From the IMG/VR virus record IMGVR_UViG_3300028048_000055, positions 32,001-96,000 of that record: a stretch of DNA of 64,000 nt; one strand, 5' to 3'. Positions 9,922 through 61,542 of the stretch are shown here, one piece after another; within the stretch, counting starts at the first letter, position 1; each line of letters starts with the position of its first letter. The notes beneath the pieces are model-generated. The model was given only the letters and a program-made list of their open reading frames with translations, did no database searches and had not been told where the DNA came from. Source of the DNA: a virus (Duplodnaviria > Caudoviricetes). Both the position numbers and the translations under genes were made by a program.

Positions 9922-10269
9922 ATGAATTTCAGTTATATTAATGATGATTTTGAATTAGAAGCATCTTTTACAAGTAATGATGCATTAAATGCATTTAATA
10001 AAAAGATTGTAGAATTTGCATATTATAATGATAAAACTCATACTGATTTCCGTGGTAAGCCATATATTAAGTTTGAATATAGTAAAGGTAATGAATTAGT
10101 TCTCTGCGGTAAAGATACTGATCAGCTAATTGAAATTCTTAATATGTTCAATGATGTTATGATTAATTCTAGTGAACTTAATAAGTATAATATTGAAACA
10201 TATAAAGAATATGTACGGAAAGCTGCAAAAGAAGAAAAAGAAAACGGAATAAAAATTATTTCATGGTAA
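9922..10269 (+). CDS. hypothetical protein
   Basis: AGGAG SD before ATG 9922. Confidence 0.65.
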   Translation: MNFSYINDDFELEASFTSNDALNAFNKKIVEFAYYNDKTHTDFRGKPYIKFEYSKGNELVLCGKDTDQLIEILNMFNDVMINSSELNKYNIETYKEYVRKAAKEEKENGIKIISW

Positions 10270-10272
10270 GGG

Positions 10273-10301
10273 TTTACAAAACAAGAAATAATTACTATAT
10301 T
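10273..10301 (+). promoter_or_regulatory. sigma70-like phage promoter
   Basis: TTTACA-N17-TATATT. Confidence 0.7.
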
Positions 10302-10307
10302 ATATGA

Positions 10308-10438
10308 TGTTGATTGTGAATGTCTGATAGACGATCAATAAAATGAAGTAAGAACAGTTGTTAGTGGTTAACCTGCAAATTACCGGTAGGTCTGGTCTTA
10401 CATGAGGGTGACGAATCGGTATTCCTTCAAGACATTCT
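10308..10438 (+). ncRNA. unidentified structured RNA
   Basis: ORF-free segment after a promoter; GAATGTCT/AGACATTC closing stem. Confidence 0.35.
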
Positions 10439-10451
10439 TTAAAAATAGGGG

Positions 10452-10480
10452 TTTACAAAACAAGAAAAAATTTCTATATT
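10452..10480 (+). promoter_or_regulatory. promoter of tRNA block 1
   Basis: TTTACA-N17-TATATT. Confidence 0.75.
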
Positions 10481-10542
10481 AATCAACGTAAAAACGAAAA
10501 ATGAAAAAAAGTTTTTATATATAATATAAAATGAGGATGAAA

Positions 10543-10605
10543 ATGCAATTAGTAATAACAACAAACATGACACCAGTCAATAATCCAAAGGTAACTTTCG
10601 ATTAG
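10543..10605 (+). CDS. attenuator leader peptide 1 (MQLVITTNMTPVNNPKVTFD)
   Basis: GAGGA SD; T/N/V/P/M-rich; followed by a terminator and Asn/Thr/Met/Pro/Val tRNAs. Confidence 0.8.
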   Translation: MQLVITTNMTPVNNPKVTFD

Positions 10606-10631
10606 TTTGTTTCATTACTCGATTTCATTTG

Positions 10632-10666
10632 AATCCTGTATGAGACAAACTCAAACAGGATTTTTT
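10632..10666 (+). terminator. attenuator terminator 1
   Basis: AATCCTGT/ACAGGATT stem plus T tract; competing pairing 10604-10615 with 10640-10651. Confidence 0.8.
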
Positions 10667-10680
10667 AATTTTCCTTTTAT

Positions 10681-10994
10681 TGTTCCATAGCTCAGTTGGT
10701 AGAGCGACGGACTGTTTGAAATAGACACTTATATTGGAAACGATATATGAAAATCATCGCTAAGTCGGTGAAACCTGTAAAATGGCAACGCCGAGCAAGG
10801 ATTAGAAATAATCTATGTGTAGAGACTTTATACGATGAGCCTAAGTCAGTAATGATATGGCTAAGACAAAGTCCAGACTACAAACGAGTGTCCAATTTGC
10901 GCGGTGGGGGGCTTAACACCCATGCGGATGCTTGGTAACGAAAGTTATAGTAGTATGAATCCGTTGGTCCCTGGTTCGAGTCCAGGTGGAACAG
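10681..10994 (+). tRNA. tRNA-Asn(GTT), interrupted by a group I intron
   Basis: exons 10681-10716 and 10958-10994 rebuild the cloverleaf (ACGGA-CTGTTAA-TCCGT; TGTTCCA/TGGAACA). Confidence 0.9.
10717..10957 (+). mobile_element. group I intron (no ORF) in the tRNA-Asn anticodon loop
   Basis: P/Q/R/S-like core (TCGGTGAAAC, GGCAACGCCGAGCAAG, GTAGAGACT, AAGACAAAGTCC); U before the 5' splice site and terminal G. Confidence 0.85.
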
Positions 10995-11135
10995 CTAACA
11001 CTTAGACAGTAATTGTTCATTGTTACAACGTTATTGTTACGCACGATGAAATTCATGCAAGTTTGGAATCGACAATATTTTGTTAATTCTGGGTAAAGTT
11101 TCAATGAATAGCGGGTGATTATTATCTAAGTAGAT

Positions 11136-11208
11136 GCTGATGTAGCACAGCTGGTAGTGCAGCGGCTTTGTAATCCGCAGGTCGGGGGTTCGGATCCCTC
11201 CATCAGCG
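11136..11208 (+). tRNA. tRNA-Thr(TGT)
   Basis: cloverleaf, loop TTTGTAA. Confidence 0.9.
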
Positions 11209-11398
11209 CTAAAAATATTGTTAGGCGTTATTTAGAAGCTGCAGACTCTTTATAATGCTAAGCCGGGTGCAGCAACGGGATGTCAGCTGCGGGAAGAGCT
11301 GGTATAATCAGAGACCTCCAGTAACAATATAATTTTTACATTAGGTGGTAGTCCACTAGGAAGTTGGATCTCCTTTAAACCAACAAAAGAGAATTTAT

Positions 11399-11482
11399 CG
11401 CGGGATAGTCTAATGGTAAGATATTGGGCTCATAACCCAAGGACTGGTAAAGCTTGTCTCGGTTCGACTCCGAGTCCCGCTA
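11399..11482 (+). tRNA. tRNA-Met(CAT), initiator-like, long variable region
   Basis: unpaired 1:72, GGG/CCC anticodon stem, loop CTCATAA. Confidence 0.8.
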
Positions 11483-11521
11483 TAGTTTAGAGCAGTGGTT
11501 AGCTTATATTATAAATATTAT

Positions 11522-12280
11522 ATGGAATTAAAAATAAAACATATATGTAAATTTTGTAATATGGAGTTTACTACTGGGGCACAATTAGGAACACATATTT
11601 CTAAACAATGTCTTAAAAATCCAAATAGAGGAATACAAAAGAATTCTAAAATTTGGAAATGTTCAATTTGTGGTAATGATTTTCTTTCACGAAGAAGATT
11701 ACAACAGCATCGCAAAGATGAACATATTAACGAAATTAAAAGCAAATACTATGGGTATCATCCGATATTGAATATACCTTGTCAATTTTGCGGTTTAATT
11801 TGTAAAAGAGCTCGTGATTTAACAAGACATGAAAAATTTTGCAAAGAAAACCCAAATAAACAAATTTGGCAAGGACATAAAACTTCGGATGAAACTAAAA
11901 AGAAATTATCAGAAGCGGCTATTAAAAATCTTAGTGGTACACATTGTAATTGGTTAAATAAAAAGAAATCTTATGCTGAAGAATATTTTGAAACTATATT
12001 TACAAATGCTGAATCACAATATCAAGTTGGAAGATACGTATTAGATTTTGCATGGACTAAATCAAAAATTTATATTGAAGTTGATGGTGAACAGCATTAT
12101 ACTAAAGAAGGTATCGAACACGATAAGATTAGGACAGAATTTTTAATAGAAAATGGTTGGAGACTTTTAAAAAGAATTAGATGGTCTGAATTTCAAAAAC
12201 TTTCTAAAGCTGAACGTGAAAATGAAATTTATAGATTATTACAGACTATCAAAATTCAAGAAGAAACTAAAACGTTATGA
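11522..12280 (+). CDS. Zn-finger + NUMOD3-like + DUF559/Vsr-like putative homing endonuclease
   Basis: C2H2/CxxC repeats, HKTSDETKKKLS, LDFAW...IEVDGEQHY; TATAAATA-N4-ATG. Confidence 0.8.
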   Translation: MELKIKHICKFCNMEFTTGAQLGTHISKQCLKNPNRGIQKNSKIWKCSICGNDFLSRRRLQQHRKDEHINEIKSKYYGYHPILNIPCQFCGLICKRARDLTRHEKFCKENPNKQIWQGHKTSDETKKKLSEAAIKNLSGTHCNWLNKKKSYAEEYFETIFTNAESQYQVGRYVLDFAWTKSKIYIEVDGEQHYTKEGIEHDKIRTEFLIENGWRLLKRIRWSEFQKLSKAERENEIYRLLQTIKIQEETKTL

Positions 12281-12318: not shown

Positions 12319-12392
12319 CGGAGTGTAGCTCAGCCTGGTAGAGCATCTGCTTTGGGAGCAGAGGGTCGTGAGTTCGAATCTCGCTACTCCGA
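12319..12392 (+). tRNA. tRNA-Pro(TGG)
   Basis: canonical cloverleaf. Confidence 0.92.
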
Positions 12393-12460: not shown

Positions 12461-12535
12461 CTCTCCTTCGCCTAGCTGGTCATGGCACTTGCCTTACAAG
12501 CAAGCAAAACCTTGGTTCAAATCCAAGAGGGGAGA
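12461..12535 (+). tRNA. tRNA-Val(TAC)
   Basis: cloverleaf, loop CTTACAA. Confidence 0.85.
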
Positions 12536-12541
12536 TAAAAA

Positions 12542-12660
12542 TATAGCATAGGTAGTTCCTATTACTAAGCGTATAGCTCAACTGGTGGAGCAGTTACCGA
12601 AAGGTAAAAGGTTGTCGGTTCGAATCCGATTGTGCTTGCCATTCGATACTACCCGCTATA
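12542..12660 (+). ncRNA. UCCUAU scaffold copy 2 carrying an anticodon-less tRNA mimic (GAAA loop, CCA end)
   Basis: TATAGC-ATA-GGTAGT-TCCTAT...TAC-TACC-C-GCTATA enclosing tRNA-like 12567-12641. Confidence 0.8.
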
Positions 12661-12670
12661 AGGGTTTAAC

Positions 12671-12739
12671 GGCATAAGACGTTCCTATTTAGCTCATGTG
12701 AGCGTTTGATTGATATTCAAAAGGTTATTACGTCTCGCC
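12671..12739 (+). ncRNA. UCCUAU scaffold copy 3 (mini D-arm + GAT/Ile anticodon arm)
   Basis: GGC-ATA-AGACGT-TCCTAT...TAC-GTCT-C-GCC; TTTGA-TTGATAT-TCAAA. Confidence 0.8.
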
Positions 12740-12796: not shown

Positions 12797-12862
12797 ATGA
12801 CTTACGTTATGAACACAAATAATACCAACCCTAATAATAACCCTGAGGTTCTACAGGATTAG
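12797..12862 (+). CDS. attenuator leader peptide 2 (MTYVMNTNNTNPNNNPEVLQD)
   Basis: 7 Asn, 3 Thr, 2 Pro; precedes a terminator and Asn/Pro/Thr tRNAs. Confidence 0.85.
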   Translation: MTYVMNTNNTNPNNNPEVLQD

Positions 12863-12894
12863 TTTTGTTTCATAACTTGATGAATTTTTAAACT

Positions 12895-12934
12895 GGATCC
12901 TGTAAGATATTAGAACTTACAGGATTTCTTTTTT
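12895..12934 (+). terminator. attenuator terminator 2
   Basis: ATCCTGTAAG/CTTACAGGAT plus T tract; TACAGGATTAGTTT over the stop codon competes. Confidence 0.85.
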
Positions 12935-16970: not shown

Positions 16971-17032
16971 TTAATCAAACAAAAAACAAAAACAGGAAAA
17001 AAATTTTTATATATAATATAAAAGGTAACAAA

Positions 17033-19951: not shown

Positions 19952-20071
19952 AATAGCAAAAGCGGTTCCTATAACCAGAGGAATAGCTTAGTTGGTTAGA
20001 GCAACGCAGCAATGCGGAGGCCGTCGGTTCGAGTCCGATTTCCCCTACCATCAAGTTTACTGCTCGCTATT
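19952..20071 (+). ncRNA. UCCUAU scaffold copy 7 carrying an anticodon-less tRNA mimic (GCAA loop, ACCA end)
   Basis: AATAGC-AAA-AGCGGT-TCCTAT...TAC-TGCT-C-GCTATT enclosing tRNA-like 19977-20050. Confidence 0.8.
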
Positions 20072-20121
20072 TTTACAAAAACAGGAAAAAATTTTTTATA
20101 TATAATATAAAGGTTAAGAAA

Positions 20122-25314: not shown

Positions 25315-25376
25315 TAACAACGTAAAATAACAAAAAAGAAGAAAAAAATTTTATATATAATATAAAGGTTTAAAAA

Positions 25377-25972: not shown

Positions 25973-25980
25973 CTACATAT

Positions 25981-26092
25981 TGCTTGGTGGTGAAAATCGT
26001 GTGGCCTAGGCGCATCGTAGGTAAACACGCCCCGCATAGTAGGGGTGTCTACTTAGCTGGTAGACTTGTTGGTTCGAGTCCAACCTAAGCAG
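25981..26092 (+). tRNA. atypical tRNA (Leu-like) with D-loop insertion and 8-nt anticodon loop
   Basis: acceptor, T arm and variable arm present; GCCCC-GCATAGTA-GGGGT. Confidence 0.55.
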
Positions 26093-26100
26093 TTAAATAT

Positions 26101-28291: not shown

Positions 28292-28357
28292 TAACAACGT
28301 AAAATAACGAAAAACAAGAAAAAACTTTTATATATAATAATAAAGGATAAAAGCAAA

Positions 28358-59757: not shown

Positions 59758-61542
59758 ATGACAAAACTAAAATCATTAATCTTGTGCTTGTTAATGTGTG
59801 TATCAATGGCTTTTGCAGGTCTTGCAGACAATGCTTCAAAGTTCGTTGGTAATATCACTACTAATGGACAAATTCGTTCTGACTTTGGTCAGTATTGGAA
59901 TCAGATTACAGCAGAAAATGAATGTAAGTGGGCTTCAATTGAAGGCACTCGTGGGCGTTATAACTTCACCGGCTGTAAGAACGCTTACAACTGGGCAAAG
60001 CAGAATAATAGCTACTTTAAGTTCCATGCATTGCTTTGGGGTTCACAATATCCGAACTGGCTTGAAGGATTGAGCGTTGATGACACGAAGACAGCTATTA
60101 TGAACTGGTTTGATGCAGTCAAGAAGGAATTCCCAGACATTGACATGATTGACGTTGTTAATGAAGCTATCCGAACTGGCAATAATCAGTACCATTCCAA
60201 CTACCCGAAGACAAAGATCATTGAAGCAATGGGCGGAGATAATGGCAACTATACATTCATTGTCAATGCGTTTAAGGAAGCAAGAAAGAGATGGCCAAAT
60301 GCAGTCTTGATTTATAATGACTATAATACAGTTCAGTGGCAGAAGAATGAAGGTATTGATTTAATTAATAAGATTAAGCAGGGTGGTGCTCCGGTTGACG
60401 CATATGGTCTTCAGGCTCATGACATGCAAGTTGGCGGTGGTGGAAACAACGGAACTGGTGCTAATGGTTCTTGTTTGCCTCTAAGTCAGTTGAAGTCAGC
60501 GATTGAAGAAATTTGGACTAAGACACAGACACCAATGTTCATTTCAGAGTATGACATTGCGACAACTGATGACAATGACCAGAAGAATTGCTATTCTCAG
60601 CAGATTTCTTACTTCATGGAAAATGAACATATTGCTGGTATTACTATTTGGGGTTATATCTATGGTTCTACTTGGACAAGCGGTGGTAACTCTGGCATTA
60701 TCAGAAATGGTCAAGATAGACCTGCAATGACTTGGCTTAAGGAATATTTGCCTTCTCATCCAGGTAACAATACAACAGGATTGCTTGGAAGTATAGCAGT
60801 TGAGCCTGAACCACAGAAACCGTTTAAGGGTAAGGCATTTGATTTGACCTCTCCTATTGAAGCAGAAGATTTCGATATTCCTGGTAAGGGTAGAAATGAA
60901 GACGGAACAAATAATAATTCCTATTCTGCAAGTGGTTCTTGCGATGATACTTGGAATACAACATATCGTGAAGGAACAACTGTTAGTATTGGCGAAAAGA
61001 ATGGTGGTTTAGTTATTGGTTGTAATCCTACTGGAAACTATTATGAATATACAATTAAGGTTCCAGAAGCTGGTAATTATATCGTATATGTTACTGTAGC
61101 TGCAGATGGTGAAGGCGCAGTTGTCTTCAAGAATGGTGATAAGGTAATTTCTGATACTATTAATTATTCTGGTGATTCTTGGACTAAGTTTGAAACAGCT
61201 AAGGGTCATGTAACATTTGATGCTCCTGGCGAACAGATTTTAACACTTGAAATCGCTAAGGGTTATATCGATGTCGATAAGTTCGAATTTATGGTAACAG
61301 ATTGTGCTCCAGGTGATGTAACTTGCGGTGGTCCGTCTATTGACTGTGATGCACATCCTGATGCTCCAGGTTGTGATATTGTAAGCTTTATGCCGATTAG
61401 ACAAGAACCTGTATTGCAGCATTTTAAGATTTTTGACCTTAATGGTAATTATCTTGGATTGGTAAGCGGCTATAGTAAGACTGGTGCAGCAAATGTAGTT
61501 GCAAATAAGTTACATACTCGTGTAATTTTGATTAAAAAGTAA
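59758..61542 (+). CDS. secreted GH10 endo-1,4-beta-xylanase with CBM6-like module
   Basis: signal peptide; QITAENECKW, FHALLW, DVVNE, YNDYN, GLQAH and ISEYD; IEAEDFD CBM. Confidence 0.9.
   Translation: MTKLKSLILCLLMCVSMAFAGLADNASKFVGNITTNGQIRSDFGQYWNQITAENECKWASIEGTRGRYNFTGCKNAYNWAKQNNSYFKFHALLWGSQYPNWLEGLSVDDTKTAIMNWFDAVKKEFPDIDMIDVVNEAIRTGNNQYHSNYPKTKIIEAMGGDNGNYTFIVNAFKEARKRWPNAVLIYNDYNTVQWQKNEGIDLINKIKQGGAPVDAYGLQAHDMQVGGGGNNGTGANGSCLPLSQLKSAIEEIWTKTQTPMFISEYDIATTDDNDQKNCYSQQISYFMENEHIAGITIWGYIYGSTWTSGGNSGIIRNGQDRPAMTWLKEYLPSHPGNNTTGLLGSIAVEPEPQKPFKGKAFDLTSPIEAEDFDIPGKGRNEDGTNNNSYSASGSCDDTWNTTYREGTTVSIGEKNGGLVIGCNPTGNYYEYTIKVPEAGNYIVYVTVAADGEGAVVFKNGDKVISDTINYSGDSWTKFETAKGHVTFDAPGEQILTLEIAKGYIDVDKFEFMVTDCAPGDVTCGGPSIDCDAHPDAPGCDIVSFMPIRQEPVLQHFKIFDLNGNYLGLVSGYSKTGAANVVANKLHTRVILIKK

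Follow-up and report, generated by a model that had tools for sequence, protein, structure and literature searches.

The DNA analysed here, referred to as the window, is a stretch of 64,000 nucleotides that corresponds to positions 32001-96000 of the 165-kb IMG/VR record IMGVR_UViG_3300028048_000055, a caudoviricete virus record estimated to be about 40% complete. The window is AT-rich in composition and contains 38 tRNA genes called by ARAGORN, without exception on the + strand, to which several further tRNA genes were added by Rfam. Under genetic code 11 the coding density of the window is normal, and TAG, TGA and TAA are each used as stops. The genes nearby are of the type found in large phages and encode a calcineurin-like phosphoesterase, a cytidylyltransferase, a DUF559/zinc-finger endonuclease and a family 10 glycosyl hydrolase. 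The phage-encoded glycosyl hydrolase is of the xylanase type and is found at window positions 59758-61542 (Pfam, E=1e-51).

The first tRNA block in this account begins with tRNA-Asn(GTT) and is preceded by a short leader, here termed attenuator 1. All of the features of this unit described below are on the + strand. A sigma-70-like promoter is located at 10450-10480 and consists of a G-rich lead-in, the hexamer TTTACA (10452-10457), a 17-nt spacer and the hexamer TATATT (10475-10480), scoring 10 out of 12. A second copy with an identical 18-mer begins at 10271. The two copies (10271-10301 and 10450-10480) are identical and 179 nt apart, with a noncoding stretch, 10302-10450, between them. The possibility that the 143 nt at 10308-10450 form a strongly folded RNA was unsupported, folding being no better than that of shuffled sequences (z=-1.3). 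The same type of promoter precedes four other leaders in the window.

Downstream of the promoter is an AT-rich, leader-specific 5'UTR motif (10513-10530) with a perfect TATAAT inside it. The motif occurs exactly five times in the 165-kb record, each time just upstream of a leader ORF, and it is also found in relatives. Because it is present at leaders only, a role as a general late promoter was ruled out. It may represent a second promoter, a ribosome-loading element or a pause element. The copies of the larger UTR element are found at 10497-10530, 16990-17022, 20078-20111, 25335-25366 and 28310-28343, and the element is able to form an all-A/U hairpin of 6-7 bp just 5' of the Shine-Dalgarno site. 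In attenuator 1 this site, read from the sequence, is GAGG at 10533-10536, 6 nt 5' of the start codon. The leader ORF that follows (10543-10605), identified by an ORF scan and codon counts, comprises 20 sense codons from ATG to TAG. The ATG at 10543 is kept in orthologues, while the in-frame ATGs upstream at 10531 and 10537 are not. The ORF is followed by a predicted intrinsic terminator (10632-10666), which is composed of a hairpin at 10632-10662 and a T tract.

The tRNA genes named in an earlier, preliminary description of this DNA were all recovered, with one amendment. The tRNA-Asn(GTT) gene (10681-10994), the first of the putatively gated genes, is real but split into exons at 10681-10716 and 10958-10994. 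When these are joined in silico, the product is a normal tRNA-Asn(GTT) in agreement with an orthologue that lacks the intron. The gene is followed by tRNA-Thr(TGT) at 11136-11209, an 86-nt tRNA-Met(CAT) at 11398-11483, tRNA-Pro(TGG) at 12319-12392 and tRNA-Val(TAC) at 12461-12535. The final member of the block is a tRNA-like gene at 12567-12641 with a 6-nt, GAA-like anticodon loop, and an equivalent odd tRNA, likewise called with an odd loop, follows Val in the orthologues. Similar oddities are found elsewhere in the window, where a second tRNA-like gene with a 6-nt anticodon loop is located at 19977-20047 and a 114-nt gene with an 8-nt loop lies inside the Leu block at 25980-26093. One of the two genes with 6-nt loops has a promoter on one side and the UTR of the Asp/Arg/Gly leader on the other. 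The gap between the attenuator 1 hairpin and tRNA-Asn is 18 nt, which leaves no room for another promoter. The corresponding gaps in the other five modules of the window, which are described below, range from 5 to 102 nt, four of them being 18 nt or shorter.

The sequence that interrupts tRNA-Asn (10717-10957) is 241 nt long, lies directly after the anticodon and is probably a group I intron. The match to the Rfam model RF00028 extends over the full model length with E=8e-5 and 27.7 bits, compared to a gathering score of 50. Exon 1 ends with T and the intron ends with G, and the boundaries were fixed by means of the intronless orthologue in a 424-kb relative (L009:1636). Part of the intron, 10762-10885, has 73-76% identity to stretches of a 735-kb uncultured phage and of a Pelagibacter phage. 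A distant BLAST search of 10200-11500 against GenBank phages yielded no relative of the leader, all matches being to tRNAs or to the intron core. Genes for zinc-finger and DUF559-type endonucleases are located between the tRNAs of the block at window positions 11495-12280, and a similar endonuclease ORF is found between both blocks in a 411-kb relative (L022:2330-3055). These endonucleases look like free-standing homing endonucleases.

Leader codons and the tRNA blocks they precede

The codons that the preliminary description had listed for the leader, ACA three times, CCA twice and GTA twice, are all present at 10543-10605. The leader additionally holds three AAC/AAT codons and one internal ATG. 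When cognate codons were assigned by strict wobble rules and the phage's own long ORFs were taken as background, 11 of the 19 internal codons were cognate to the downstream tRNAs, compared to 16% in the long ORFs (binomial P=3.8e-5), and eight were non-cognate. An equally good match was found in only 7 of 200,000 random ORF windows, and the remaining two frames of the leader stretch have cognate fractions of 0.10 and 0.20. The cognate block is formed by codons 4-15, and the final five codons are mostly non-cognate. The preliminary description had also argued from the choice among synonymous codons, namely that the codons used are those read by UNN anticodons. This choice is mildly skewed in the expected direction (7 of 9 codons observed, 4.1 expected), which is modest when taken alone; against the argument, the fourth Thr codon varies among ACA, ACC and ACT in the orthologues.

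Attenuator 1 is one of six modules of the same build in the window, each consisting of a promoter, the UTR motif, a Shine-Dalgarno site, an ORF of 20-35 codons, a hairpin with a T tract and a tRNA block. The exception is attenuator 2 (12797-12926, + strand; leader ORF 12797-12862, terminator 12896-12926), which possesses no promoter or UTR motif of its own. For this reason, attenuator 2 is probably fed by read-through from block 1, and the two gates would then act in series. A decayed promoter copy, with a G-rich lead-in and remnants of both hexamers, is found upstream of attenuator 2 at window positions 12663-12692.

When every leader was compared with every block, the fraction of codons cognate to the leader's own block ranged from 0.50 to 0.62, while the background was 0.11-0.24. 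Only 1 of the 720 possible permutations of leaders and blocks, the true one, reached the sum of this diagonal. The attenuator 1 leader fits block 2 nearly as well as its own block, with values of 0.47 and 0.58, respectively. Over the six leaders together, synonymous choice also fits the anticodons, with 42 codons observed and 26.7 expected (z=4.6). Specifically, Ser is encoded by AGY in the leader that precedes the Ser(GCT) block and by TCN in the one preceding the block that carries Ser(GGA), Ser(CGA) and Ser(TGA). Similarly, Lys AAG is found in the leader associated with Lys(CTT) and Gln CAG in the leader associated with Gln(CTG). Cognate codons are concentrated in the central part of the leaders (89 of 124 codons) and are rare in the last six codons (5 of 36; Fisher P=6e-10). 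An attenuator would require such a non-cognate tail because a ribosome stalled near the antiterminator would mask it.

Predicted terminator, antiterminator and protector pairings

The terminator hairpin at 10632-10662 was confirmed by RNAfold. It has a lower stem of 8 bp, an A.A mismatch, an upper stem of 4 bp and a loop of 5 nt, with a predicted energy of -14.4 to -15.1 kcal/mol. Four unpaired T residues follow, or six in a row if the last two stem bases are counted. A simple terminator scanner missed the hairpins of attenuators 1 and 2 on account of the mismatch and the long loop, and RNAfold was used instead. The alternative helix that had been postulated between 10604-10615 and 10640-10651 also holds, as the two strands form 12 consecutive pairs, including one G.U pair, at -12.8 kcal/mol. 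Among 2000 dinucleotide shuffles of the upstream stretch, five reached this duplex energy. The 5' strand of the antiterminator, segment 2 (10604-10615), begins within the TAG stop and is inside the footprint of a terminating ribosome. Its 3' strand, segment 3 (10640-10651), is made up of the 5' side of the terminator upper stem, the loop and two bases of the 3' side of the upper stem. Recoding of the stop codon, which would extend the leader ORF through segment 2, was ruled out by the normal code-11 coding density and the use of TAG and TGA as stops.

The 5' part of the ORF, segment 1 (10547-10566), is predicted to act as a protector that pairs with segment 2 when free of ribosomes. In the minimum-energy fold, 10560-66 pairs with 10605-11, 10551-56 pairs with 10614-19, and 10581-85 pairs with 10600-04. 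At equilibrium in the full transcript, the terminator forms with a probability of at least 0.83 at almost every ribosome position, the one exception being 0.44. Because the terminator wins at equilibrium, the switch must be kinetic, and the antiterminator must form first. To approximate the point at which the choice is made, the transcript was folded only as far as 10651 or 10654, where the lower 3' arm of the terminator has yet to emerge. In this fold, and with no ribosome present, segment 2 is sequestered by the beginning of the ORF with P=0.81, and the antiterminator has a probability of 0. When the A site is placed at codons 2-12, this probability rises to 0.85-0.94. With the A site at codons 14-17, the beginning of the ORF is exposed again and recaptures segment 2, and with a ribosome at the last codons or the stop, segment 2 is masked and the probability of the antiterminator is again 0. 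The responsive codons 2-12 include the run Val, Ile, Thr, Thr, Asn, Met, Thr, Pro, seven of which are cognate.

The antiterminator of attenuator 1 overlaps the upper stem and loop of the terminator, not the lower stem. Exclusion of the lower stem would follow, on steric grounds, from the 3-nt linker, which should be unable to span a 12-bp helix. The arrangement differs from that of the other leaders. Fourteen of the 15 leaders compared have an ORF whose 3' end is complementary to the 5' arm of the leader's own terminator, with energies of -7.5 to -15.6 kcal/mol for these own pairs, while pairs of different types have a mean of -6.8 kcal/mol (sd 3.1). Attenuator 1 is the exception at -2.6 kcal/mol, and its last codons do not copy the 3' arm of the terminator. 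This tail has been lost, and the top of its terminator is instead complementary to a stretch after the stop codon that is common to attenuators 1 and 2. These two attenuators can be aligned over their whole length, and the alignment indicates that they are paralogues.

Relatives and evolution of the putative attenuators

A search of IMG/VR with the pattern of promoter plus UTR motif identified 19 loci, the longest contig being 424 kb. These loci show the same modules, and the composition of the leaders tracks the tRNA content. For instance, tRNA-Ile(GAT) is part of the Ala/Glu block in the window, and the Ala/Glu leader contains five Ile codons. In the 424-kb relative, tRNA-Ile is found in the Tyr/Cys/Ser block, and there are four Ile codons in the Tyr/Cys/Ser-type leader and one in the Ala/Glu-type leader. 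A parallel shift is seen for Cys, whose leader codons follow its tRNA between the Leu and Tyr blocks. Three related contigs of 411 kb, 291 kb and 50 kb (L012:4197-4300, L013 and L016) have a Tyr/Cys/Ser-type leader with an in-frame TAA after eight codons. Beyond the TAA, the frame resumes with text rich in Cys, Ser, Ile and Tyr codons and continues to the normal stop. These leaders could be disabled, shortened or read through.

Orthologues of attenuator 1 are present on ten further contigs, which represent five sequence variants. In the eight orthologues that were compared, segment 2 is invariant. Segment 3 is also invariant in the orthologues except for one A-to-G change, which keeps the pairing as G.U. 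No compensatory change in the 12-bp helix was found among the orthologues, the only changes being two one-sided ones that are compatible with G.U pairing. The spacer between the strands, several leader codons and the order of the tRNA genes are variable. Amino acid substitutions in the orthologous leaders involve only Val, Ile, Met and Ser and leave the general composition of the leader intact. The same set of tRNAs is found behind the leader in 7 of the 10 contigs, those with enough downstream sequence, in varying order.

Two further searches were directed at this type of leader. A loose DNA pattern for leaders of the L1/L2 type gave mostly chance matches, and a filter for a tRNA within 250 nt left eight leader places at seven loci. 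A back-translated leader pattern found two loci in IMG/VR and seven true loci in metagenomes. The small number of loci recovered with the back-translated pattern indicates that this type of leader is confined to a narrow clade, and it yields no covariation. In the 411-kb relative, an orthologous Asn-Pro-Thr-Met-Val block is located directly behind a promoter with no leader or terminator. The presence of an ungated block indicates that the attenuator 1 gate is a lineage-specific gain and dispensable.

Proposed mechanism and comparison with known systems

The promoter, the Shine-Dalgarno site, an ORF rich in cognate codons, the terminator and an alternative helix that is masked by a ribosome at the stop together support the proposal of the preliminary description that an attenuator precedes these tRNA genes. 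In view of the sequence anatomy, the codon statistics, the folding models and the conservation, the unit is quite probably a working, ribosome-mediated leader-peptide transcription attenuator of a phage tRNA block that senses decoding capacity. In the proposed mechanism, host RNA polymerase would start at the promoter at 10452-10480 and transcribe the leader. A ribosome would then load at GAGG/ATG and translate the ORF of 20 codons, whose central codons, Val, Thr, Thr, Asn, Met, Thr, Pro, Asn, Asn and Pro, are those of the downstream tRNAs. If decoding were fast, the ribosome would reach the TAG and cover 10604-10615, so that the hairpin at 10632-10662 could form and transcription would stop 18 nt before tRNA-Asn. 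If charged tRNAs were scarce, a ribosome stalled on the cognate block would occupy the beginning of the ORF and so keep it from sequestering 10604-10615. The freed segment would pair with 10640-10651 once this had been made, the terminator could not close, and read-through would reach Asn, Thr, Met, Pro and Val, and then attenuator 2. With no ribosome, the protector would hold 10604-10615 and termination would result. The net effect would be a negative feedback that tops up the decoding capacity for these codons during infection.

The anatomy is equal to that of the attenuators of amino acid operons, and a stalled ribosome cannot distinguish a missing tRNA from an uncharged one. The same switch might then respond to amino acid starvation through tRNA charging, linking the output of phage tRNAs to the nutrition of the host. 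This signal is nevertheless unlikely, because extra tRNA gives no relief from amino acid starvation, and the leaders separate synonymous codons (Ser AGY from TCN, and likewise Lys AAG and Gln CAG), which points to isoacceptors rather than to amino acids. A different explanation is that translation of the leader acts on the processing or decay of the tRNA precursor, or that the hairpin acts constitutively as a partial terminator that does no more than set a low basal level, in which case the alternative helix would be without function. The dominance of the terminator at equilibrium, a 12-bp helix that has no compensatory changes, and the absence from attenuator 1 of the antiterminator type of the other leaders are in its favor. 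It is quite improbable, however, given that a complementarity of this strength is rare among shuffles (5 of 2000) and that both strands, unlike the variable spacer that separates them, are invariant. Furthermore, the 5' strand lies exactly under the terminating ribosome, the fold profile reproduces the classical logic, and matched antiterminators are found in fourteen other leaders.

The ORF itself is short and lies in AT-rich DNA, so that it might be a chance ORF or an independent gene for a small peptide with its own terminator, its match to the tRNAs being a coincidence. Such a coincidence is very hard to credit. The structure recurs six times with a block-specific match that only the true permutation among 720 achieves, a comparable match is very rare in random ORF windows, and it is missing from the other frames of the leader. 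In addition, relatives shift the composition of the leader along with the tRNA content, and the changes in the orthologues, limited to Val, Ile, Met and Ser, preserve the make-up of the leader.

The furthest-reaching reading, a demand-driven feedback on the phage tRNA genes, is as a whole somewhat more likely true than false. Under a demand-driven feedback, each tRNA block would be transcribed only if its own codons were decoded slowly, and the six leaders would together constitute a sensor of decoding capacity. Attenuator 1 would be a copy of attenuator 2 in which the antiterminator of the ORF tail was replaced by the pairing of the post-stop stretch with a remodelled terminator top. If this is true, the sensor could allow the phage to replace tRNAs depleted by host shut-off or by defence systems that cleave tRNAs, and the gates would have been gained, duplicated and rewired within one phage lineage. 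The matched leaders would provide a read-out of the codons that the phage treats as limiting. Moreover, the gated and ungated relatives of the same tRNA block would be natural controls.

Transcription of tRNA genes is normally described as being controlled at the promoter, by growth rate and the stringent response. With an attenuator before tRNA genes, the speed of decoding would instead feed back directly on the supply of tRNA. The classical attenuators, such as thrL, ilvL/ivbL, trpL, hisL, leuL and pheL, are found in the amino acid operons of enterobacteria and possess a translated leader, a terminator, an antiterminator whose 5' strand is at the stop, and a protector pairing. Of these, pheL has been described as a leader-peptide attenuator (PMC3082878). 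As in the attenuators of amino acid operons, regulatory codons of more than one kind are present in the phage leader, and the predicted behavior is the same, with termination when translation is absent or fast and read-through upon stalling. In contrast to these systems, the phage unit targets tRNA genes and not biosynthetic enzymes, and its leader lists different codons, one to three of each, in place of a run for one amino acid. No Rfam leader family was matched, and those of the Thr, His, Leu, Trp and Phe leaders gave no hit in 10280-11420 at E up to 1.

Closer in its target is the pheST operon of E. coli, which encodes phenylalanyl-tRNA synthetase and is described as being under tRNA(Phe)-dependent attenuation (cited in PMC4082710). 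Like pheST, the phage unit would control a component of the translation apparatus by leader-peptide attenuation, with feedback through the decoding of cognate codons. However, pheST is a protein gene for a synthetase with a single amino acid specificity, while the phage unit comprises the tRNA genes themselves, with five specificities. T-box elements work independently of the ribosome, with a specifier codon and the T-box sequence making direct contact with uncharged tRNA. The phage unit resembles them in that translation-related genes are tied to the state of specific tRNAs by the choice between terminator and antiterminator, but differs in having a leader ORF. The T-box model RF00230 gave no match at the gathering score when 9000-33000 was scanned, and within 10280-11420 there was no match even at E up to 1.

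The tRNA clusters of phages such as T4, T5 and the huge phages are explained by codon compensation or by escape from defences that target tRNAs (PMC10264068). Like other phage tRNA clusters, the window contains a large set of 38 tRNA genes, here with putative leader-peptide gates. A full-text literature search, largely limited to open-access papers, found no description of leader-peptide control of tRNA genes or of phage tRNA clusters. The attenuator would bear on why phages carry tRNAs and when these are used, and would make this question testable. Overall, the mechanism proposed is of a known kind and its target, tRNA genes, is new; the checklist-like leader and the phage setting also set it apart from the known systems.
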